DNA of 35,867 nt. Source: a virus. Lineage: Duplodnaviria; Caudoviricetes. Each line of letters starts with the position of its first letter. Position 1 is the first letter of the stretch. The position numbers were made by a program, and so were the translations under genes. The notes below the pieces were generated by a model. That model was not told where the DNA came from and made no database searches. It worked only from the letters and a program-made list of their open reading frames with translations. The stretch is from positions 1 to 35,867 of IMG/VR virus record IMGVR_UViG_3300032257_000065, one strand, 5' to 3'. Of this stretch, positions 2,844-16,173 are shown piece after piece.

Positions 2844-3257
2844 TTATCGCTCCCAAATACCAGACTCGATCACCTTATTACTCTTAAGTGAGTCTGCATC
2901 TTTAATATAATATATCCACGCAGTACCATAAGAGGTTTCAATCTCTTTACGGTTATAGAAATGAGGATACCCTTCAAGACGATCTAATCGTTTAAATGTA
3001 GGATCATCTACTTTATACACTTCACCACAGATAGAGGTTGAACCCCCTTCCTTAATAGCTGGGAAGCCACCTAAACCATACATAGTGTACTCTTCTGCTG
3101 TCTTCTGTTCACCTAATAATTCAGAAGTATGTAATAGGTGGTGGTTGTGGAAGTTTTTCTTTAAGGAACCATATACCATTACTAGGTATTCTGTATCCTT
3201 TTGTTCCTCTTTTACATCTTGGACAATATTTTCTCTCATAAGTTCAATCCTATTCAA
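2844..3257 (-). CDS. gamma-glutamylcyclotransferase (AIG2-like/YtfP family)
   Basis: VMVYGSLKK...NH, FPAI, GEVYKVD, LDRLEGYP.FY.R, AWIY motifs. Confidence 0.93.
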   Translation of the reverse strand: MNRIELMRENIVQDVKEEQKDTEYLVMVYGSLKKNFHNHHLLHTSELLGEQKTAEEYTMYGLGGFPAIKEGGSTSICGEVYKVDDPTFKRLDRLEGYPHFYNRKEIETSYGTAWIYYIKDADSLKSNKVIESGIWER

Positions 3258-3279
3258 TATTTATTATTAGTAGTCTTTT

Positions 3280-3918
3280 TTAGAAAGATGTTCGTAGTCT
3301 TGCAGACCTTCTAAGAGTCTGTTCAAATCGAGCCTGTGCTTGATCTATTCTCCTCTGATACTCTTCTTTAGCTTTCTTCTTACCCTTCTCACTACGTAAA
3401 TCCTTCTCCTTATAAGATAAGCCATCTTTAGTAAGAGATGTATGTTTAGTCCTAGTAAGATCACCTAGGTCTGCTTTAGTAATAGTATAAGTGTGTAGTA
3501 GGTTCTCTGTCTTACTACTTCGAGCTTTAACCAAAGGCTCGATACCGTACCACTCAGCAAAATCAGCTAGACTATAACCTTCTAATCTGTGCTGACCTAT
3601 AGAAACACCATTCCAACTATCCCCTACTGCATCTGAGAATGAAATAATAACAGTACGGGTAGATAAAAACGTATACCGTAATATTTCTAAGATTTGGTAG
3701 AAGATAAAAGGGCTATCCTCTTGTGTAATCTTAGTCTCTTTACCATACTTAGGGTACATCTCTCTACCCTCAGAGATTATATTTTTATTACTTACACTTA
3801 GGTTAAATACCTCAGAGATACCACAACACTGTCTACTCTGCTTACCTTCTAAAGTAATAGTGATGACACCATCATCTTTCTGTATTATTTTATTATATTT
3901 CATCTCACTGTTCCTCAA
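3280..3918 (-). CDS. hypothetical protein with CCG motif inside the amidoligase cluster
   Basis: 212 aa ORF coupled to the ATP-grasp gene; family not recognised. Confidence 0.7.
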   Translation of the reverse strand: MRNSEMKYNKIIQKDDGVITITLEGKQSRQCCGISEVFNLSVSNKNIISEGREMYPKYGKETKITQEDSPFIFYQILEILRYTFLSTRTVIISFSDAVGDSWNGVSIGQHRLEGYSLADFAEWYGIEPLVKARSSKTENLLHTYTITKADLGDLTRTKHTSLTKDGLSYKEKDLRSEKGKKKAKEEYQRRIDQAQARFEQTLRRSARLRTSF

Positions 3919-4690
3919 TATATTTAGTAAACGCTGCTACATATTTCTCCAGCGTAGTACCTTCTAATCCCGGTGCTGTGTTGATCTCCAGAATATATGG
4001 CTTCTGTTCATGATCATTCCATATAACATCAACCGCTCCGAAATCAAGTCCACAAGACTGTACAGCAAGAATGCTGTTACTGCTAACGCTTGCAGGGCAA
4101 TCAATACCGTCCCTACAATAAACCCAACCAGTATGCTTATTCCTGATCTTATAGTTAACATCATCGTTCTCTACCTCTCTTCGTTTACGTTTCTCCTGTA
4201 TATCTATTACTTCACCTTGGAAGACATGCACTCTATACTCTGTCTTCTTCTTCTTATACTCTACAAATAGGGGGGCACGAGTCCAGTCTGCTGCCAGATC
4301 ATTAGGACTCTCTACGTACTCTGCACCATCACCACTATGACCTCGTAGTTTATGACGGGCTACTATAGGGCAGCCCCACTCTTTAGCTACATTAGGGTTA
4401 GTAGTAAAACGTGGTATCTGTACCTCTCCACGTTCCAGATCCTGAAAGCCAAGTAATTTATTACCTACTCTTAAGACCTTATGAGGGTCGTTTAGAATAG
4501 ATACCTCACGTCCGTACCAGTCAGGTAAGGCTCCGCTACCCCAATTAATAATTACATGGTTGTTACGTGGTAGATATCTACGATTAGGGTACACTTTAAA
4601 AGTACGTGTACCTCTCTCTCGAAGTCCTTCTGCTAACATAGTAGCTGACTGTGAACCCATCTTATATGGGTAGATTCTAAACTGTTTCAT
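3905..4690 (-). CDS. ATP-grasp ligase (RimK/glutathione synthetase-like, phage type)
   Basis: IINWG, GHSGDG loop, EYRVHVF, GLDFGAVDVIW, ILEINTAPGL motifs. Confidence 0.93.
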   Translation of the reverse strand: MKQFRIYPYKMGSQSATMLAEGLRERGTRTFKVYPNRRYLPRNNHVIINWGSGALPDWYGREVSILNDPHKVLRVGNKLLGFQDLERGEVQIPRFTTNPNVAKEWGCPIVARHKLRGHSGDGAEYVESPNDLAADWTRAPLFVEYKKKKTEYRVHVFQGEVIDIQEKRKRREVENDDVNYKIRNKHTGWVYCRDGIDCPASVSSNSILAVQSCGLDFGAVDVIWNDHEQKPYILEINTAPGLEGTTLEKYVAAFTKYIEEQ

Positions 4691-4693
4691 GAC

Positions 4694-6304
4694 TTAAACT
4701 CCACTACGGTCTTTATAACCTGACCCAGCCATACAACCCCAATCAGAGAGATCGAGAGCACAGCTAGGGCAGATAGGCTTATGATCGTTAGTCCACTTAA
4801 CATCAAATGCATTATCTGGGCTGATTGGTGCTTGACACATATCGCATCCATCTTGAGCTGCTCTTTGAAACGACTCCAGACTAATGTATCGTCCGTTTTC
4901 CCCCCTGTACTGTTTGAGGCATGAGGGAGCGTAAGGCTTTTTTTCAGCAGAGGACACCTCCGAGTCCCGTACTTGTTCTATAATCTTCTCTATATTATCC
5001 TTTGGCTTACCTACTCTATCCCGTAGATACTCTCTAACATCATCAGATAGTTTCCTTACTTCCTTACCCTTCTTATCCTCTCTGGCTTTCTTTGCAGCCT
5101 CTTCTCTAGCCTTACGTGCTTCTAATACCTTGTTATCGATATTCGGCAAGGATAGTATTTTCTTCTCTTCTTCCTTTTCTTCTTCCTTTTCTTCTTCCTT
5201 ACCACCTACAGGCTCTTCATAAATCTTAGAGATCGTGTGACGTGATAGGTAGATCTCTATATTACCTGCCCTGTTATTACAGTAAGAGATCTCACCTTGT
5301 AAGACATCCTCATCTTTAGCTAAACTAATAGTGTCAGAGTCTACCTGATGTACAATAATATCACACCAAGGTTCTTCAGTTAAAGTACCAGAGATCTCAC
5401 CTAGTGGGTCTTTATTACCATAATGTGTAGCCTTATGAACCCAGAAGTCAACAGTCTCACCTATCTCCAGACCGATACTTTCTAGTAGCTTTTTTGCCTT
5501 ATCAGTCCGTCTACGATTAAGTCTAGCATTTTGACTTTCATTAGCTGGCTTGAAGTTAGTTGCAGCACGCTTAACCACAGGCTCTGCATATTTACTAAGA
5601 GCTTTTGTTGAGTACTCCATAGTCTTAAGGTCTAGAGTATGGAGGGTGTGTGTTTTAAGCAACACCATATCAACTATTTCCATCTTGTTACGAGAGGCAA
5701 CCCAATTAATCATACCAGCCTCACTAGCAAATAAGACAGTAGTGTGTCCATCATATACATGCTTAACCTTTGCAGTAAAGAGTGGACGTTCCTCATTACG
5801 GAACATATTCACTGTGTTATTTTTAATGTCATGGTATACGATGGCATACGCACCATTAAGGCCTTTTACCGTCTCCTCTACTCCAACTTCATTGATGGAG
5901 TGGAAAACAGCATCACTGTCCACATCAAAAAGCTCACCGTCTTTTAATAGGTTACGGTGATTATTCAATGAGCCATTATGTACACCAATAATATTACCAT
6001 GATGAAAAGGGTGTGCATTGACTGAATTAACAGCACCTCGGGTAGCCCAACGGTTATGTCCTACTACTAAGGTCTTATCAATCATACTGCCTAGTATCTT
6101 CTCTGCCTTACGGTGGTTGATGAAGTCCCAACCTGCAATAGCTGATTTAAACTTCTGTAAAGTACCATCACTATCTACTGTAAAGACGCCAGTACTGTCC
6201 TCGCCTCTTAAAGAGTCTACAACTAAAGCGTCTCTGATAAAGTTACGCTTTTCTCCAGCCATAACACCTTTACTATCACTTATTAAACCTATAATACCAC
6301 ACAT
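4694..6304 (-). CDS. class II (Ntn) glutamine amidotransferase with long C-terminal extension ending in a Zn finger
   Basis: N-terminal MCGIIG, RGEDSTG, GHNRWATRG, NAHPF, HNGSL, VDSD; C-terminal CDMC...CPSC. Confidence 0.93.
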   Translation of the reverse strand: MCGIIGLISDSKGVMAGEKRNFIRDALVVDSLRGEDSTGVFTVDSDGTLQKFKSAIAGWDFINHRKAEKILGSMIDKTLVVGHNRWATRGAVNSVNAHPFHHGNIIGVHNGSLNNHRNLLKDGELFDVDSDAVFHSINEVGVEETVKGLNGAYAIVYHDIKNNTVNMFRNEERPLFTAKVKHVYDGHTTVLFASEAGMINWVASRNKMEIVDMVLLKTHTLHTLDLKTMEYSTKALSKYAEPVVKRAATNFKPANESQNARLNRRRTDKAKKLLESIGLEIGETVDFWVHKATHYGNKDPLGEISGTLTEEPWCDIIVHQVDSDTISLAKDEDVLQGEISYCNNRAGNIEIYLSRHTISKIYEEPVGGKEEEKEEEKEEEKKILSLPNIDNKVLEARKAREEAAKKAREDKKGKEVRKLSDDVREYLRDRVGKPKDNIEKIIEQVRDSEVSSAEKKPYAPSCLKQYRGENGRYISLESFQRAAQDGCDMCQAPISPDNAFDVKWTNDHKPICPSCALDLSDWGCMAGSGYKDRSGV

Positions 6305-6305
6305 T

Positions 6306-7382
6306 TTAAAGCTCCTCTTCGATATCTCTAATTATTCTAGCACGTTCTGCCATCGCTTGCATATGCTCTTCCATACCTCCGATAGCATATACTGTCTTCT
6401 TCTTATTAGTCTTCCGTAGCTTGATCAACCTTTTATAGTTCTCACTTTCTACGAATCTAGGGTTCTTCCTAGATATCGACCCCATATACTTATCGGAACT
6501 ATTCCTTAAGTCTCCGGCGTATATCATATCTTGAAAGAGACGCATACCTTCTAAGATATCTCCTTCTACATCTGAATACTTAAACAGTTTCTGGATCATA
6601 TCTTCAGAGAATATGTCACCGATAACAGACATATACCCTGCACCACTGATACCGGTAAGGATATCATAAGGATGACCATTATACTCACAGGCATATTTCT
6701 TCATAGCCATAAGTATATTGATCCACTCAAGGATAGCTTTTGAGTTTGTTGACCCTTCCATATGTCTGAACTCTAAAGACCCGAAAGAGAATAAAGCAGC
6801 TACATTAAGACCATAATATTTGGTCAGATACTTTAGACTACCTTGTATACGTCGAGCTACCTTACCATCCTCGTCGCCCTCAGCAAGCTCTAATACTTTA
6901 GATAAGCCTCCTAAGTGTTCTAAATGCTTTGTTGCATTATAGAAAGGTAGGCAATAGATATTCTCATGCCTATTATATCCGTGATTGTGATAACGATAGA
7001 TAGGTTTCTCAATAATTAAATATAAACCTATAAGGTTTAATAAAGAACGTAATGTCATATCTCGAACGTCTAAATGTACATGTATTGATGTACGAACACT
7101 TTGAGATACTTTAAGATCTTTACCTACTTGCTCTAGGTTCTCCAAAGCAGTAACTAGGTCTAAACCCATCAGCGGTTCTGATAGTACAAACTCAGCCCCT
7201 CTTCTAAGTGAGCCATCTTCTACGACATTCCAATACTTAGGAGGTGTTATACGGTCAAGACGTACCCCTTCTACCTCAGACTCTACACCTACATAACAGC
7301 TTGGAAGGACTAATCGATCATCAGGTTTAAAAGTACGGACATCTGCGTACTTACCTGTTATTAAACTAACCTGCATCTTCAA
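6306..7382 (-). CDS. putative amidoligase (glutamate-cysteine ligase/glutamine synthetase fold, Amidoligase_2-like)
   Basis: VGVESEVEG, VEDGSLR..AEFV, RTSIHVHLD, KYYGLN, GSLEFRHM motifs. Confidence 0.9.
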   Translation of the reverse strand: MKMQVSLITGKYADVRTFKPDDRLVLPSCYVGVESEVEGVRLDRITPPKYWNVVEDGSLRRGAEFVLSEPLMGLDLVTALENLEQVGKDLKVSQSVRTSIHVHLDVRDMTLRSLLNLIGLYLIIEKPIYRYHNHGYNRHENIYCLPFYNATKHLEHLGGLSKVLELAEGDEDGKVARRIQGSLKYLTKYYGLNVAALFSFGSLEFRHMEGSTNSKAILEWINILMAMKKYACEYNGHPYDILTGISGAGYMSVIGDIFSEDMIQKLFKYSDVEGDILEGMRLFQDMIYAGDLRNSSDKYMGSISRKNPRFVESENYKRLIKLRKTNKKKTVYAIGGMEEHMQAMAERARIIRDIEEEL

Positions 7383-8046
7383 TACCTCCTATTGGCATAA
7401 ATTGCGTTAAAGATTCCATCAAAAACTCAAATCCTGTAAATACTATAGCAGTGTTATTTGGCTTAACTTTACCTACTATGTCGTTGTTGTTACATCCTAT
7501 TAAGATATCTTCAGAGTAACGATCAACGCTTAACCAGAACTTACCACTAATGGCTGCTGTAAATCTCTTACCTTTACGTATACGACTTAGGGCAGCATAC
7601 GTATCATAATAAGAATTTTTACGTATTGCATCTAAGATTTTAGGTAAAGATATCGAAGGGTTATGTACTACTGGAAGATCCCCATTAACATAGGAGCAAT
7701 GATATGAGTTGTTATTAATAGCCATATTATATTGACGCTCTGCACCCCTCTTAACATTTATAACTCTGTCATGATAGTTGTATAAACCAGACTTGATCGG
7801 TGTCAGGTCAATCTCAGACAGTTTAATGTCGATTAAAGCTTCAGAGTCCCAACTATTATAGTTTCCTCGTGATTTGGGCTTAAACACTTTAGCGAATCGT
7901 ACCATTTTATCAGTACTATCACTTGTAAAAGTTTCAAATATCTGCTGTATAGATACAGGTGTAATTTTACCACCTAGTACAGCAAAAGCATAACCTCTCC
8001 GTAGGTATCTATCTAAATCACCTACTGCATAGTCTTCTGTTTTCAT
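7366..8046 (-). CDS. hypothetical protein between the two COOH-NH2 ligases
   Basis: 226 aa, ATGA overlap with the upstream gene, GGAGG RBS. Confidence 0.8.
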   Translation of the reverse strand: MKTEDYAVGDLDRYLRRGYAFAVLGGKITPVSIQQIFETFTSDSTDKMVRFAKVFKPKSRGNYNSWDSEALIDIKLSEIDLTPIKSGLYNYHDRVINVKRGAERQYNMAINNNSYHCSYVNGDLPVVHNPSISLPKILDAIRKNSYYDTYAALSRIRKGKRFTAAISGKFWLSVDRYSEDILIGCNNNDIVGKVKPNNTAIVFTGFEFLMESLTQFMPIGGIEDAG

Positions 8047-8828
8047 ACCACCTCCAAGCCGTGAAGCTCAACCAACTCATTAGCTAGTTCTCGATTGCCT
8101 TCATTAATACACTCGATAACTTTATCACCAATATCACGAGTGATACGGAAACCGCCTAAATACCGATCCATAGCAGCCTCTACCTGATCATAAGCCCAAT
8201 CAATGTGATCTCTCGACTGAATCCAGAAATTAGACAGAGTTCGATATTCAACACCATATTCTTTACTACGGTATGCTCCAGCCTTACCGTACAACTTACG
8301 ACGTTCAACATCAGCATCCATTAACACAGAAGGAACACCCAGCACTAAGTCTAAGATTCGGATAAATGATGCTTTCTCATTCTCATCCTGTGTTACGTCT
8401 TCCAGAGATACGTGGATATGACCACCGCATGAACGTAAAGTCCCTACAGTTTCAGGATCAGGTGGTATATTATTATCCATAGTGTACGCATTCAAGTCCG
8501 GAGTACACCCAAATACTAAAGCCATAGGGTGTTCTAACTCCTTCTTAGGGTAATGAGCAGAGGCCTTAACTATAGTAGTAAGGTCATACTCTTTAACCTT
8601 ATGTTGAAGCAGCCCATATACTTTCTCAATACCTTCCCGCCAACCCTCCTTACTGTCACTGGGGTCTACAGCAAACTCTGCTAAGACGTTATCTTCCTGT
8701 AAATTACCACCATCCACTAAGAACGGTTCCTCTTTACTACCACCAATCAAACCAATAGATGATACAAAATCACCCGTTTTAGATGATAGTAGTAATACCT
8801 CTATATCTGTACCTAGTTTTAAACTCAT
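8043..8828 (-). CDS. phiEco32-like COOH-NH2 ligase type 2
   Basis: LGTDIEV, IGGSKEEP, LQEDNVLAEF, FGCTPDLNAY, RSCGGHIH, RRKLYGKAGAYR.K.YGVEYRTLSNFW. Confidence 0.93.
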   Translation of the reverse strand: MSLKLGTDIEVLLLSSKTGDFVSSIGLIGGSKEEPFLVDGGNLQEDNVLAEFAVDPSDSKEGWREGIEKVYGLLQHKVKEYDLTTIVKASAHYPKKELEHPMALVFGCTPDLNAYTMDNNIPPDPETVGTLRSCGGHIHVSLEDVTQDENEKASFIRILDLVLGVPSVLMDADVERRKLYGKAGAYRSKEYGVEYRTLSNFWIQSRDHIDWAYDQVEAAMDRYLGGFRITRDIGDKVIECINEGNRELANELVELHGLEVV

Positions 8829-9022
8829 ATTAAAGTCCCCGCAGTTACTGTAAATGTATAATGAAGTCTACCGTTAAGAAAGATAGGGTAGTTACTGCTT
8901 ATAGTGACCCACTCATACTTTTTACACAGTGTTGCATCTAACATCTTAGCGACATCATCTGCCTTACCTGCATCAACGGTATGTGTTTGCCTGTATTCAA
9001 TATTAGGCTGTACTTGATACAT
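8825..9022 (-). CDS. hypothetical protein
   Basis: 65 aa, strong GGAGG RBS, ATGA overlap with the next gene. Confidence 0.7.
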   Translation of the reverse strand: MYQVQPNIEYRQTHTVDAGKADDVAKMLDATLCKKYEWVTISSNYPIFLNGRLHYTFTVTAGTLI

Positions 9023-9049
9023 AAAACCTCCCCCTACGTAGTAGGTTGT

Positions 9050-9751
9050 TTATTTAATATACTCCTTGATTAGGAATTGAAAGAATTTAGCTCCGTCAGA
9101 ACTCTTATCCATATATTCTGGATGGTACTGAACACAAAGAGAATTGGTAGTATCATACCACAACACTTCCGGTTCTTTGCCGCTAAAAAGACCGCCATTA
9201 TACTTCTCAGTATAGTCATTAAATTCAGGGAATGGTATTGCTGACATTTGAACAGCAAGATCTTCCGCATAGGCTATCATTTCATGGCTCTTAGTGACAT
9301 CAGGAACCATCATTTGATGATGTGTGGAAGTAACCATAACCTCTTTATTTTTAAACTTACTGCTTCCATTGATACGTATCTTATGACTTGAGGTGTGTCC
9401 AGTCATATGCTGTACCAGCTTACCTCCATTCATGACGTTAAGGAATTGAGCACCTCTACAGATACCAATCATAGGTATTCCATGCTCTAAGGCGTACTGG
9501 AATATTTCCTTCTCTTCCCTGTCCCTAACATCATCTACTGAAGCTACATAGCCACTACGAACCTCCCCATACATAGAAGGGTTGACGTCTGTACCGCCAG
9601 TAAATACTATACAATCAGCCATATCTCTTTGTGATGGAGCTACTACTGCCCCACCTGCTTCAAAGAATGGTTTGAAATAAGCATTACTGCCTAGTACTAA
9701 GAAGTTAAAAGAATTGTGATTAAGGATATTATTACGATTACGATCAGCCAT
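9050..9751 (-). CDS. class I glutamine amidotransferase-like protein (peptidase C26 / PuuD gamma-glutamyl hydrolase family)
   Basis: FTGGTDV.P..YGE, GICRGAQFLNV..GG.L.QH, STHHQMM, VQYHPE (Cys-His-Glu triad). Confidence 0.92.
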   Translation of the reverse strand: MADRNRNNILNHNSFNFLVLGSNAYFKPFFEAGGAVVAPSQRDMADCIVFTGGTDVNPSMYGEVRSGYVASVDDVRDREEKEIFQYALEHGIPMIGICRGAQFLNVMNGGKLVQHMTGHTSSHKIRINGSSKFKNKEVMVTSTHHQMMVPDVTKSHEMIAYAEDLAVQMSAIPFPEFNDYTEKYNGGLFSGKEPEVLWYDTTNSLCVQYHPEYMDKSSDGAKFFQFLIKEYIK

Positions 9752-11408: not shown

Positions 11409-11632
11409 ATACTCCAGAGGGTAATAGAGATAAACAAGAATGTTAAAGTCAAGAATATAGACCTTAAATACCCTGAATAGTGATACTCTGACTCATGATA
11501 GTCAACATCACCACGATATTGTAAACTTTCCTTATAGGCATTGTACGCTGCAATAGTGTACAGGAAAGCTACAACCGTAACTCCTGAGAAACAAATAGCC
11601 GCAGCTATAGTCAAAAATGTAATAATATTCAT
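11405..11632 (-). CDS. small two-TM membrane protein
   Basis: GGGGAG RBS; two hydrophobic helices. Confidence 0.7.
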   Translation of the reverse strand: MNIITFLTIAAAICFSGVTVVAFLYTIAAYNAYKESLQYRGDVDYHESEYHYSGYLRSIFLTLTFLFISITLWSM

Positions 11633-12085: not shown

Positions 12086-12583
12086 TTATGCTTCCAGTGC
12101 TAGCATAGCAGTAGTAAGGTGCTCCACTAGCGCAGGTGCATTATTTTCTCGTGCAATTTCACGACGTTTATTAAGGTAAGCAATAGCGCTTTTGGTAGCT
12201 TTAGCCTCGTCAAACTCAGGCTCCCCTTTACCGTTATTATCTGCCCACTCCACCCAAGTGCTTAAGCTGTGGAATTCTTTAGGTAAAGTTTTCATCTTAC
12301 CAGCTTTAGTGTATGAATTAGTATTACTGTCATACACCGCACCAGTGAAATGCGTTAAAAAGCTACGCAAGGCATTAACTCGAATACCTCTACGGGTTCT
12401 GGCATAGGTCAAACTCTTATTAAGATATGCTATATTCTTTTTATGTTTCCAGAATAGAGCTATAGCGCCAATTGTCAGCACTGTATCATCGTCATTATTT
12501 TGCTTGGCTGTCTGGAATTGACGACCTAAAGCAGCCATAAACGTATCATGATCGTAGTCTATGTTTTTAATTGTGTTGTTCAT
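12086..12583 (-). CDS. first leftward (early) gene, hypothetical, 165 aa
   Basis: AAAGGTGA RBS before ATG at 12583 (MNNTIK...); the upstream extension to 12646 lacks an RBS. Confidence 0.8.
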   Translation of the reverse strand: MNNTIKNIDYDHDTFMAALGRQFQTAKQNNDDDTVLTIGAIALFWKHKKNIAYLNKSLTYARTRRGIRVNALRSFLTHFTGAVYDSNTNSYTKAGKMKTLPKEFHSLSTWVEWADNNGKGEPEFDEAKATKSAIAYLNKRREIARENNAPALVEHLTTAMLALEA

Positions 12584-12856
12584 AATATTCACCTTTCTAT
12601 AGGTTATTAATAGGAATGTATTATATGTACTTAAACATAAGCACATACTGATAAACTCATATTATATTTAGAATATGACCATTTAAGCCCACGGCAAGCC
12701 CCTGCAATATCGGGAGTTACTACCTTCTCTCTACTTACGCGCCCAAAGGTTGCCACTATTACAACAGTTGTTAACTGTATTTGGTCATTTACTAGTTACT
12801 GTATTGTATGGCTATAACTATTAGCGTATTGATAGTATATTAGCGTTTGCTTAAAT

Positions 12857-12875
12857 GATAATGATTCTCATTCGC
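12857..12875. promoter_or_regulatory. Fur box 1
   Basis: GATAATGATTCTCATTCGC, 15/19 to GATAATGATAATCATTATC; 7-1-7 form TGATAAT-G-ATTCTCA is 13/14. Confidence 0.7.
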
Positions 12876-13027
12876 ATTGACTAACTATCGCAACAAGCCC
12901 GTATACAGTGCCTTATCTCGCGTCTATTCTTATGCATGGTTTAATCGTACCACTGGTATAGATACCGCTGACGAACTACGCTGACTAAAGAACATGCCTC
13001 AAGGGGCTAGTCAGTTGCTGAATATGT

Positions 13028-13044
13028 TGCATATGCTATGCCAA
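13028..13044 (-). promoter_or_regulatory. sigma54 -24/-12 box 1 (leftward, towards early genes)
   Basis: Minus strand TTGGCATAGCATATGCA, GG-N10-GC. Confidence 0.7.
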
Positions 13045-13084
13045 CTTTAAGTATTATCCCTTTTATTTATTTATTCCCCTTTAG

Positions 13085-13097
13085 AATCAATGACTTA
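13085..13097 (+). promoter_or_regulatory. IHF site 1
   Basis: AATCAATGACTTA, exact WATCAANNNNTTR, with an upstream T/A tract. Confidence 0.7.
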
Positions 13098-13122
13098 CAG
13101 CGATATATCTACTTTTATCACA

Positions 13123-13139
13123 TTGGCATAACTTTTGCA
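13123..13139 (+). promoter_or_regulatory. sigma54 box 2
   Basis: TTGGCATAACTTTTGCA. Confidence 0.8.
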
Positions 13140-13144
13140 TACAG

Positions 13145-13277
13145 TGTACAATTTTGTCCATTTTATACCCATATTGTACATATTGTACAATGCTAATATA
13201 CTAATATAGAGCTATGTCATTGATTTATATAGTATATAAGTATATTAGAATTGTCCATATTGTACAATTTATGTATA
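13145..13277. repeat. two clusters of phased TGT(A/C)CA repeats
   Basis: Copies at 13145, 13155, 13175, 13184 and 13252, 13261 (TGTATA at 13272); about 10-bp phasing. Confidence 0.75.
13213..13225 (-). promoter_or_regulatory. IHF site 2
   Basis: Minus strand AATCAATGACATA, one mismatch to consensus; inverted near-copy of site 1. Confidence 0.55.
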
Positions 13278-13320
13278 TTTTTATTGCCTATATATAGTGT
13301 AAATATAAACACATATTATA

Positions 13321-13337
13321 TTGGCATTATTATTGCA
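13321..13337 (+). promoter_or_regulatory. sigma54 box 3
   Basis: TTGGCATTATTATTGCA. Confidence 0.8.
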
Positions 13338-13360
13338 TGTCTTGATAGCCTATTGCGGTG

Positions 13361-13377
13361 CTGGCACGATTGTTGCA
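13361..13377 (+). promoter_or_regulatory. sigma54 box 4
   Basis: CTGGCACGATTGTTGCA, full match to YTGGCACGRNNNTTGCW. Confidence 0.9.
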
Positions 13378-13438
13378 TGGTACTATAAAGGGTATTAATG
13401 GTGACTATCACTTATATTTATACCATATTTCTGTATTA

Positions 13439-13455
13439 TTGGCATATTTCTTGCT
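13439..13455 (+). promoter_or_regulatory. sigma54 box 5
   Basis: TTGGCATATTTCTTGCT. Confidence 0.8.
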
Positions 13456-13461
13456 TTAAAT

Positions 13462-13480
13462 GAGAATGATTATCATTATC
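13462..13480. promoter_or_regulatory. Fur box 2
   Basis: GAGAATGATTATCATTATC, 17/19 to consensus; covers the predicted +1 (about 13466) of sigma54 box 5. Confidence 0.85.
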
Positions 13481-13593
13481 GATGGGGGGAGGGGGCTGGA
13501 CTCTATTAAAAAAATCCTATTATAACACCTAGCTACAAAAAACGTGATTTTGAGTATTAAAAAACAGGGATATAGAACTATATAGACTATACA

Positions 13594-13606
13594 TAACTAC
13601 TTGATT
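13594..13606 (-). promoter_or_regulatory. IHF site 3
   Basis: Minus strand AATCAAGTAGTTA, exact WATCAANNNNTTR. Confidence 0.6.
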
Positions 13607-13786
13607 CTACTAGGTTTTTAGGTCTGAAAGCAGTTATTAAATAATACCCTAAAGAACTCAGTAATACCTACCTACCTTACTATCTTTATAACCATATCTC
13701 TTTGTCTTTCTCTGGTAATCCTTACCCCTTGTGGGTAAAACGGAAATTAAAAAGACTAAAGAATGAAAATAATTTGAAAATAAATT

Positions 13787-13813
13787 GAACTTTTTGCTTT
13801 TTTTATTGTCTAA
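13787..13813 (+). promoter_or_regulatory. RpoE/AlgU (sigmaE)-type promoter upstream of the packaging/structural operon
   Basis: GAACTT-N16-TCTAA with an A-rich upstream element. Confidence 0.75.
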
Positions 13814-13946
13814 TACGTATATTACTTTTATATTAATTAAAAAGAAAATAATAATAAAAATATAAGGATATAAGGAAAGTAGGTATTAAAAGTATTAAAG
13901 AATATACCAGAACTATATAGATATATACAACAATGAGCGTATACGT

Positions 13947-14072
13947 ATGAAATCTTCAAATAAAGCAGCTATGACTGTAAGAAGTATGTTTGGTGGTATG
14001 TTAGGTAAAGCTATCACAAAGACTAAAGAAAGTAAAATTAAGAGACAAGGTAATAAAAAGACCAAAAAGTAA
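13947..14072 (+). CDS. 41-aa lysine-rich peptide (MKSSNKAAMTVRSMFGGMLGKAITKTKESKIKRQGNKKTKK)
   Basis: Manual translation; ends 6 nt before terS; weak RBS. Confidence 0.5.
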   Translation: MKSSNKAAMTVRSMFGGMLGKAITKTKESKIKRQGNKKTKK

Positions 14073-14078
14073 ATAATA

Positions 14079-14453
14079 ATGACTGAGCTTACTGACACCA
14101 AATTTAAAAAGGGTACTTCTGGTAATAAAAGAGGTAGGCCTAAAGGTGCTAAGAATAAGAAAACTGAACTACAAGAGATACTTGTATCTAAATCAAGTGA
14201 ATTGATGGTTCAGAACCTTAATAAGGTAGTATCTGTAGTTATTCAGAAAGCAGAGGAAGGTGATCTAACTGCTGCTAAGATGATTTTAGACCGTCTAATC
14301 CCAGTTAAGAAAGCTGTAGAGATTAATGCAGGTAAACTAGGGAATGGTGGTATTACAATCAATATAGAGAAACTAACAACCAACCCTCATCTATCTGGAA
14401 AAGACCTAGAAGAAGGTGAAGATGGTACTTTTGAAGAAGTAGAGCAAATATGA
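14079..14453 (+). CDS. terS: terminase small subunit (DUF5681-like N-terminus)
   Basis: FKKGTSGNKRGRPKGAKNK motif, A..GD..AAK.ILDR..P, position upstream of TerL. Confidence 0.8.
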   Translation: MTELTDTKFKKGTSGNKRGRPKGAKNKKTELQEILVSKSSELMVQNLNKVVSVVIQKAEEGDLTAAKMILDRLIPVKKAVEINAGKLGNGGITINIEKLTTNPHLSGKDLEEGEDGTFEEVEQI

Positions 14454-14895: not shown

Positions 14896-16173
14896 ATGTC
14901 TGATTTAAACTTCTCTCTACACGAGAAGCAATTAGAGATTTTCAATTCCGATGCTCGATTCAAGGTATGTGCTGCAGGTAGACGAGGAGGTAAATCCTAC
15001 TTATCCGCTGTAACACTCCTTCTGAAAGGACTTGAAGAGACTAATCGCTGGGGTTACCCCCTAAAAGGTAAAGAGGTGTGGTATGTAGCACCTACCTTCC
15101 AACAAGGGAAGGATATCATGTGGAATCTCCTTAAAGATATAGGGGAGAAAGTGATTAAGCAAGCACATGAGAATACAGCACGTTTAACCCTTATAAATGG
15201 ACGTACTATCCAAATTAAGGGATCAGATAGACCAGACACCTTACGTGGTGTAGCTATCTCTTACGTGGTAATGGATGAATATGCGTTTATGAAGCCAGAA
15301 GTATGGGATCTTATAATAAGTCCTACACTAGCTGACGTAGAGGGAGATGCCTTATTTATAGGAACTCCTGATGGTAAGAACCACTTCTATGAGTTGTGGG
15401 TTCAAGGCCATAAACTAGACGAATGGGAATCTTTCTCCTTTAATAGCATGGATAATCCCATGATATCTCAGAAGGAAATAGAGAAAGCCCGTGGTCGTAT
15501 GTCAGCAGACGCATTTAGACAAGAATTTGAGGCTTCATTCTCCTCTGGTGGTGGGGGTTCGTTTAAGGAAAGTATGTTCCAATATGCTACCTCAAGCCCT
15601 GAAGCAGGAGATATATACATAGCAGTAGATCCAGCAGGTTTTGGTACTGGAACTGGTATGGTTAAATCAGCAATGAGTCGTCTAGATGAGATGGCTATAG
15701 CAGTAGTAGAAGTTTCTCCTTCTGGCTGGTTTGTACATGATATGATACATGGTAGATGGGGTGTACGAGAGGCCAGTCTACAGGTTATAAAGGCAGCTCA
15801 GAAGTATAGACCTCGTTGTGTAGGAATAGAAGGTGGCTCATTAAAGAATGCAATGGGCGACTACTTACATGATCAGATGCGTAGGCTTAATATATATCCT
15901 CGTATCGAGACTCTTACTCATGGTGGTAAGAAGAAGACTGAAAGAATAACATGGGCTCTTCAGGGGCGTTTCGAGCACGGTCGTATTATCTTTAAAGAAG
16001 ATGCACCTTGGCTTAAGAAGCTTACTGATCAGCTCTTAGATTTTCCAAACCCAATGTCCCATGATGATCTCCCGGACGCTCTTGCGTACATAGATCAACT
16101 TGCAGATGTCGTCTATGCAGATGATTTCGAAGAAGAGACATGGGAACCTCTTGACCCAATGGCAGGATTTTAA
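14896..16173 (+). CDS. terL: terminase large subunit
   Basis: AAGRRGGKS Walker A, YVAPT, LRG...VVMDEYA Walker B, FIGTPDGKNHFY, FRQEFEASF, AVDPAG, HDDLPDALAY nuclease motifs. Confidence 0.97.
   Translation: MSDLNFSLHEKQLEIFNSDARFKVCAAGRRGGKSYLSAVTLLLKGLEETNRWGYPLKGKEVWYVAPTFQQGKDIMWNLLKDIGEKVIKQAHENTARLTLINGRTIQIKGSDRPDTLRGVAISYVVMDEYAFMKPEVWDLIISPTLADVEGDALFIGTPDGKNHFYELWVQGHKLDEWESFSFNSMDNPMISQKEIEKARGRMSADAFRQEFEASFSSGGGGSFKESMFQYATSSPEAGDIYIAVDPAGFGTGTGMVKSAMSRLDEMAIAVVEVSPSGWFVHDMIHGRWGVREASLQVIKAAQKYRPRCVGIEGGSLKNAMGDYLHDQMRRLNIYPRIETLTHGGKKKTERITWALQGRFEHGRIIFKEDAPWLKKLTDQLLDFPNPMSHDDLPDALAYIDQLADVVYADDFEEETWEPLDPMAGF

Follow-up and report, generated by a model that had tools for sequence, protein, structure and literature searches.

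The gene-free gap between the two opposed gene arms of an uncultured phage carries five exact σ54 (−24/−12) boxes. A conserved G-tract has all five, along with Fur-type boxes and IHF sites, on its early side. Judged from sequence, the cluster may act as a docking pad for host proteins at the genome end that probably enters first, which it would anchor and shield; we hold this reading tentatively and give it somewhat less than an even chance. A physical role fits best because the sites are one-sided, are interchangeable between relatives and often stand in a non-productive geometry. Among the functions that the original prediction had offered for the array, the landing pad for the end injected first agrees best with the one-sided position beside the G-tract and with the exchange of site types between relatives, the position of the end itself being deduced by comparison.

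The window, by which we mean the whole stretch of 35,867 nucleotides of the virus record that was analyzed, holds a podovirus gene set in two opposed arms. The leftward, early arm encodes an amidoligase/amidotransferase cluster and a primase-helicase, and the rightward, late arm a DUF5681 protein, the large terminase subunit (TerL), an SU10-type portal and a capsid protein (Table 1). The cluster at 2844–9751 is a peptide-ligase cluster of the phiEco32/LUZ24 type and comprises a gamma-glutamyl cyclotransferase, ATP-grasp, amidotransferases, an amidoligase and a COOH.NH2 ligase. No Pfam or PHROG match was obtained for the first early-arm ORF, which the ESM Atlas places in unnamed viral clusters only. 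The record is incomplete, since it lacks the DNA polymerase A present in all four relatives tested. For TerL and capsid, no close cultured relative was found (best cultured matches below 45% identity), a TerL search of genome contigs returned two MAG contigs only (51 and 34% identity), and the tail-fibre matches gave no informative host clue. The window DNA is present in microbial-mat assemblies, two of which are possibly its origin; in one mat-assembly copy, position 13011 is substituted and 11 nt are inserted at 13773, and no difference is listed for the boxes. From the same mat comes another, related phage that has the short stretches 11508–11557 and 13762–13813 in common with the window, the latter being the late-promoter element.

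Table 1. Features of the window in and around the gap separating the two gene arms.
Feature	Position	Strand	Remarks
First early-arm ORF	12086..12583	-	~165 aa from second ATG
Weak σ70-like promoter (9/12), leftward	12855..12883	-	consensus match only; overlapped by Fur-type box 1
Fur-type box 1	~12856..12875		perfect 7-1-7 unit; consensus match
σ54 box 1	13028..13044	-	exact match; faces early genes; predicted start ~13017
IHF consensus site	13085..13097	+	exact; between boxes 1 and 2
σ54 box 2	13123..13139	+	exact match; faces G-tract
Array of six TGTACA/TGTCCA units	13145..13266		two clusters around the IHF-like site
IHF-like site	13213..13225	-	1 mismatch
σ54 box 3	13321..13337	+	exact match; faces G-tract
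σ54 box 4	13361..13377	+	exact TGGCAC-N5-TTGC; 40 bp past box 3
σ54 box 5	13439..13455	+	exact match; G-tract begins 28 bp on
Fur-type box 2	~13461..13480		1 mismatch to 19-mer; kept in two closest relatives
G-tract	13484..13495	+	conserved family-wide; probable marker of virion DNA end
Conserved element, CAC/TAC + purine run	13516..13546	+	30-50 nt past G-tract; candidate terminase site
σE-type promoter motif GAACTT-N16-TCTAA	13787..13813	+	faces terS/terL; sole one in window
Basic small ORF, 41 aa, lysine-rich	13947..14072	+	late arm's first; counterparts in L091, L097
DUF5681 protein, likely small terminase subunit	14079..14453	+	PF18932, 1e-15; precedes terL
Large terminase subunit (TerL)	14896..16173	+	query used to collect relatives

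All five boxes are found as originally predicted, in position and strand, with 0 mismatches to the pattern used there, and the nearest rightward ORF, put at about 490 bp away, starts 492 bp from box 5. Each box has GG at −25/−24 and GC at −13/−12 across a fixed 10-nt spacer, inside TGGCAC..TTGC. Even the looser core TGGC-N8-TGC occurs only seven times in the 35.9-kb window, and five of these matches are the boxes. The shuffle control proposed with the original prediction was run as 2000 dinucleotide shuffles of the gap (12647–14078), which gave a mean of 0.007 matches for TGGCAY-N5-WTGCW and 0.075 for TGGC-N8-TGC; five matches were reached in none of them, ruling out a chance origin. The bare GG-N10-GC pattern is less telling (nine observed against a shuffle mean of 2.8, a number reached by 6 of the 2000 shuffles). 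At flanking positions of the consensus, the window boxes carry Y at −27 in five of five cases and R at −20 in four of five. Boxes 1 and 2 stand back to back, and no head-to-head pair occurs within the window.

A head-to-head arrangement with the two boxes 3–8 bp apart was first seen in two lineages, L097 and L186, and this pattern was then searched in IMG/VR. Such pairs were found in 126 stretches in 18 of the 64 parts of the database, which corresponds to an estimated 440 or so overall. In the same search, a control with both spacers lengthened by one nucleotide gave no match, and one with a single spacer shortened by one gave six. Many pair loci contain 6–10 alternating boxes with a period near 46 bp. 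Among 454 viral boxes, the positions that the pattern leaves free show R at −20 in 98% and T at −27 in 63%, and the extra boxes near pairs have the canonical spacer 161 times, compared with at most 10 times for any other. The conserved 10-nt spacing that had been named as a check is invariant in viral boxes. Since the pattern-free positions still follow the σ54 consensus and the wrong-spacer controls fail, the sequences support the identification of the five motifs as σ54 sites, with binding by RpoN predicted. The head-to-head pairs have a geometry that, by their sequence, appears unlike any ordinary promoter; no IHF enrichment was seen at −40 to −60 of 471 pair-type boxes. A hairpin or terminator origin of the pairs was ruled out by their non-complementary spacers. 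Of 62 pairs, 22 have a G/C tract no more than 500 nt away, compared with 5 of 101 control windows. The design is not peculiar to this phage. In the open literature, subscription papers, figures and bioRxiv supplements aside, no description of phage σ54 arrays was found, and the parts of PMC7693777 and PMC3391216 that were covered deal with phage proteins and not with sites.

A phage-encoded partner for these sites was sought and rejected. In agreement with the original prediction, which had noted no enhancer-binding protein, the record of the window contains no PF00158 (activator), nor does it contain PF04552 (σ54 DNA-binding domain) or PF04542 (σ70 region 2), and all three are likewise absent from a 42-kb relative (G002, CheckV 100%). 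As regards a phage activator, PF00158 exceeded the cut-off in none of 18 records (one weak match, E 0.001) and in none of five; as regards a phage σ factor, PF04552 was found in none of 18 records and PF04542 in none of five. PF00940 was found in none of five records, in a search whose positive control also gave no match anywhere.

The consensus motifs used here for Fur, IHF, DnaA, parS, NtrC, AlgR and σE are those that we take to be typical of each. The IHF sites and phased repeats said to be interleaved with the boxes are indeed present, the repeats being six TGTACA/TGTCCA units, but there are two Fur boxes instead of one; at four or fewer mismatches they are the only Fur-type boxes in the window, and they flank the box array. 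The TGTACA/TGTCCA array is possibly an activator site. Upstream of box 1 lie an IHF site at −68 to −80 and the repeat array. On the other side of the G-tract, the σE-type motif is kept in six relatives (L091, L097, L114, L134, L006 and L100); with this σE/AlgU-type motif conserved and no phage σ factor found, the late genes may use a host stress σ factor. A structured RNA was considered and rejected, as the folding of the 428-nt leader that starts at box 1 was not better than that of shuffled sequences (z −1.35); an Rfam search of the locus gave sub-threshold matches only.

The G-tract, followed 30–50 nt on by an element of CAC/TAC and a purine run, recurs across the TerL family. PacBio mapping gave the cobavirus ICBM1 a terminal repeat of 172 bp (PMC6775973); its genome begins 17 nt ahead of a tract similar to that of the window, which makes the G-tract side the likely first-entering end. 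C-rich tracts at the early-end genome start are also found in LUZ24, tf and RIO-1 according to their GenBank features. That the early end enters first is taken by analogy with T7. By comparison with these phages, we infer a virion end near ~13510 and a terminal repeat at ~13330–13510. If the G-tract marks where the virion DNA ends, boxes 4 and 5 as well as Fur box 2, and possibly box 3, would lie in the terminal repeat and thus at each of the genome's two ends. The region had been described as a central non-coding one; it is gene-free, but its central position belongs to the assembly and probably reflects joined genome ends. Contig ends pile up weakly near the G-tract (7 of 47 mapped ends within −200 to +15, with 132 tried), and the assemblies covering the window DNA contain it as contigs with flat depth.

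Relatives were collected by TerL and capsid homology and dereplicated at 95% TerL identity. Twenty-three lineages were anchored on the G-tract, which was picked by eye via its downstream element with lineages lacking a clear tract excluded; seven of them are recruits of the motif search, and the other 16, including the window, were recruited by homology. Within 600 nt on the early and 600 nt on the late side of the G-tract, the 23 lineages contain 54 and 0 σ54 boxes, 21 and 0 DnaA boxes, three and no Fur boxes, three and no parS sites, six and one NtrC-like sites, and two and no AlgR-like sites, respectively. IHF sites show no sidedness (six on either side). The 15 homology-recruited relatives alone have 14 boxes in 8.5 kb here, compared with two in 187 kb elsewhere.

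Boxes are present in 15 of the anchored lineages (7 of these 15 from the motif search) and absent from 8 of the 16 that were homology-recruited, the window counted among the 16. Three of the eight boxless lineages carry DnaA, parS or IHF motifs instead, the early side of four others (L166, L163, L095 and L194) is free of all seven motifs, and for the last (L075) only 98 nt of that side are available. The slot beside the G-tract holds eight DnaA boxes in L255, DnaA and parS motifs in L118, parS and IHF motifs in L017, and eight alternating σ54 boxes in L212 and L267. The parS motifs of L017 and L118 are parS-like palindromes on the early side, in lineages without σ54 boxes. On a TerL tree with 46 rows, 32 of which have no box near a G-tract, the box label requires six changes compared with a mean of 12.2 after shuffling. 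The two closest relatives, L091 and L097 (88–90% TerL identity), align well with the window to the right of the Fur box and G-tract and not to the left. They keep one and four boxes, respectively, elsewhere and otherwise oriented, and boxes 2–5 are kept in place in neither. Selection therefore appears to favor the presence of host sites at this place and not a fixed promoter layout. Sites for RpoN, Fur, IHF, DnaA and ParB would have in common that host proteins can load on them immediately, with no need for phage expression.

Other repeats and sites were observed in the same region. Arrays of GTGACTA/TAGTCAC repeats lie beside the G-tract on the early side in L157, L163, L164 and L166. Downstream of its single box, L091 has two exact AlgR-type sites (~5130–5270) and an NtrC-like site (5040–5060), and these sites hint at a gammaproteobacterial host.

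In the docking-pad reading, host σ54 RNA polymerase, Fur and IHF would bind the pad without the help of any phage protein. Boxes 2–5, which point off the leading end, would mostly remain silent closed complexes, and, pending expression of the early genes, the bulk of bound protein would prevent the end from sliding out again or being degraded. Box 1, together with the IHF site and the TGTACA array, would perhaps serve additionally as an activator-dependent early promoter. That the σ54 holoenzyme sits on its sites in a transcriptionally inactive state, as the original prediction assumed, is established (Bonocora et al., 2015; PMC4591121). In the same study, intragenic σ54 sites did not act as roadblocks to transcription in Escherichia coli, and shielding by silent σ54 sites can therefore not be taken for granted.

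The chief alternative, which we regard as rather unlikely, is a bidirectional σ54 promoter hub, including the nutrient-gated switch that had been put forward as one option. Here, the TGTACA array would be the enhancer for a host activator and box 1 would drive the early arm through IHF looping, while boxes 3–5 would serve the late arm on concatemers or a non-coding RNA and Fur would add iron control. Consistent with such a hub, 12 of the 14 boxes in the homology-recruited relatives face the early genes, and an early-facing box occurs in all seven of the box-bearing ones, at positions that are not homologous. In L097, L149 and GX1, a box is accompanied by an IHF site at classical spacing and by repeats upstream. 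No leftward σ70 promoter of at least 10/12 was found near the gap in five lineages, namely the window, L091, L097, L149 and L157, and the weak σ70-like promoter in the window is overlapped by Fur box 1. The early-facing boxes and the classical layout speak against the docking pad and favor real promoters in these relatives. The predominance of early-facing boxes (12:2) indicates that box 1 may be a real early promoter, and the classical layout and the missing strong σ70 promoters make this plausible; by its sequence context, box 1 is the best candidate in the window.

Other observations argue against the hub. At 88–90% identity, box positions and orientations already differ between relatives, and the four rightward boxes of the window, although present as predicted, are not conserved, the relatives mostly keeping leftward ones. 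The late arm already has its conserved σE-type motif at 13787, which weakens a late-promoter role of boxes 3–5. The DnaA and parS motifs in the same slot of sister lineages likewise weaken the nutrient switch, which remains an option for box 1 and Fur box 1. Dense alternating arrays occur without IHF sites and alongside σ70 promoters; strong leftward σ70 promoters lie behind the arrays in L267, L164, L259 and L188. The simpler idea that σ54 boxes merely replace σ70 early promoters was rejected, since five lineages conform to it but at least four do not. Finally, a gene-free gap of the cultured phage PAK_P3 contains two exact boxes, with predicted starts at 50786 and 50972, but the ONT-cappable-seq list for this phage, obtained under one growth condition, contains no start between 48439 and a σ70 start at 51049 (PMC10914365). 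The members with the most promoter-like layout appear to be L149 and L083 (GX1, PQ867844 45890–46100), in which TGTTAC/GTAACA repeats, presumably CbrB-like, lie upstream of an IHF site and an early-facing box.

It is also conceivable, though improbable, that the array is a landmark for packaging and the terminal repeat, with host proteins, stably bound beside the terminase site as a stop or a bend, setting where the repeat is copied and cut on concatemers. The cutting of lambda cos is assisted by IHF, and the array abuts the conserved G-tract and its downstream element. Moreover, with 75 of the 121 listed ORFs scanned, about 19 of the 70 distinct pair loci have a terminase among their one or two longest scanned ORFs, and the inner edge of the T5 terminal repeat is where the T5 repeat region is found. 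However, the last box and the G-tract are 13 to ~450 bp apart, depending on the lineage, and several lineages have no boxes at all.

A sponge, another option of the original prediction, has only a slim chance; here, replicated copies would titrate host σ54 holoenzyme and also Fur and thereby damp σ54 stress regulons and lift iron repression. Five boxes and two Fur boxes per genome, an irrelevance of orientation, and arrays that are widespread in viruses while head-to-head pairs were absent from the 151 Myxococcota genomes searched (one phylum) would suit it. Yet a sponge does not predict sidedness and is disfavored by the equally gene-free late side, which holds no box in any of the 23 lineages. 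Pairs 3–5 bp apart could presumably not both be occupied, which would be wasteful, and three lineages (L091, L149 and L188) have a single box. Very improbable is a phage protein, such as the small terminase, binding a motif that merely resembles σ54 sites: the motif does lie near terS/terL, but its free positions follow the σ54 consensus with an invariant spacer, it adjoins several different terminase types in phages of 36–480 kb, and a σ54-like domain was found in none of the 18 records searched.

Extending the docking-pad reading beyond the window, the DNA ends of many lytic phages might be plug-and-play docking pads for host proteins, in which silent σ54 polymerase is a clamp that can be swapped for DnaA, ParB or Fur; we consider this broader proposal possible, if on balance doubtful. 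If true, swappable pads would ratchet the incoming genome into the cell, tether it and protect it ahead of all phage gene expression; a host σ factor would here be put to a non-transcriptional use. The proposal touches on the old open questions of how a bare phage DNA end is secured and shielded early in entry and how T5 injection is halted, and a one-sided pad of swappable sites points to concrete host proteins (RpoN, Fur, IHF, DnaA and ParB). For uncultured phages, the mix of motifs might also hint at the host, and the pad would be a cis element at risk of inadvertent deletion in phage engineering. Should the boxes instead be promoters, a phage with host σ54 early and σE-type late transcription and no σ factor of its own would be unusual.

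Compared with bacterial RpoN −24/−12 sites (PMC4591121), the boxes of the window share the consensus, the fixed spacing and the possible occupancy by inactive holoenzyme; they differ in being clustered on phage DNA, in mixed orientation and on one side of a G-tract. Two opposed arms are also found in cobaviruses, RIO-1, LUZ24 and tf (Zobellviridae, Bruynoghevirus and Krylovvirus; PMC6775973), and the amidoligase cluster is common to the window and LUZ24-type phages. As in podoviruses with short terminal repeats, the window has a joined end free of genes, and a G/C-rich tract stands where the putative repeat starts; a T7-type RNA polymerase was not found in it. In contrast to the window, LUZ24, tf, RIO-1, CW02, phiEco32, ICBM1 and HTVC103P have no exact box, and the LUZ24 end carries σ70 promoters. 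The sole claim of this kind for a phage that we found in print is the single ‘σ54-like’ promoter P015 of Pseudomonas phage YuA (PMC10914365), whose 50-nt upstream sequence as listed in Table S3 of that source contains a σ70-like −35/−10 pair and no GG-N10-GC at −24/−12.

A blastn search of cultured phages with four stretches of the array returned only T5-type Fur repeats and a Nankokuvirus box. PAK_P3 could serve as a cultured model. A Hi-C study (2026, PMC13510664) describes a 14-kb loop in this phage at 3 min, anchored at two gene-free, untranscribed sites, one of which is at the termini (~63 kb); the gap at 50570–51080 may be the other anchor. This gap also contains GACAG..CAC repeats alongside the two boxes. 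The PAK_P3 boxes lie ~12 kb from the terminal repeat (PMC13510664, PMC4482731) and those of V22 in two places 6.4 kb apart, and σ54 clusters are thus not terminal in every family.

The match to T5 joins box 5 and Fur box 2 to the T5 injection-stop region (E ~0.1) and rests on Fur-type units in direct repeats C, beside the T5 DnaA boxes. The copies of direct repeat C (AY587007, 9475–9634) are Fur-type boxes, including one perfect 7-1-7 unit. Davison (bioRxiv 10.1101/866236) proposed in silico that host DnaA bound to the T5 boxes halts injection, and the passages of the preprint that were covered make no mention of Fur in these repeats. T5 differs from the window in being a siphovirus with a 10-kb repeat, two-step injection and an array ~9.5 kb from the end, and its injection-stop region has no σ54 box; the window has a podovirus gene set with no A1/A2 genes annotated in its incomplete record. 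What both have in common, in the T5 injection stop signal/Repeat Region 3 as in the presumed repeat of the window, is gene-free terminal-repeat DNA dense with motifs for host proteins, with T5 Fur-type units that match Fur box 2 and with a physical role in DNA entry proposed for T5. If the broader docking-pad proposal is correct, elements of one class could account for the stop in T5 injection as well as for the early loop of PAK_P3, so far unexplained.
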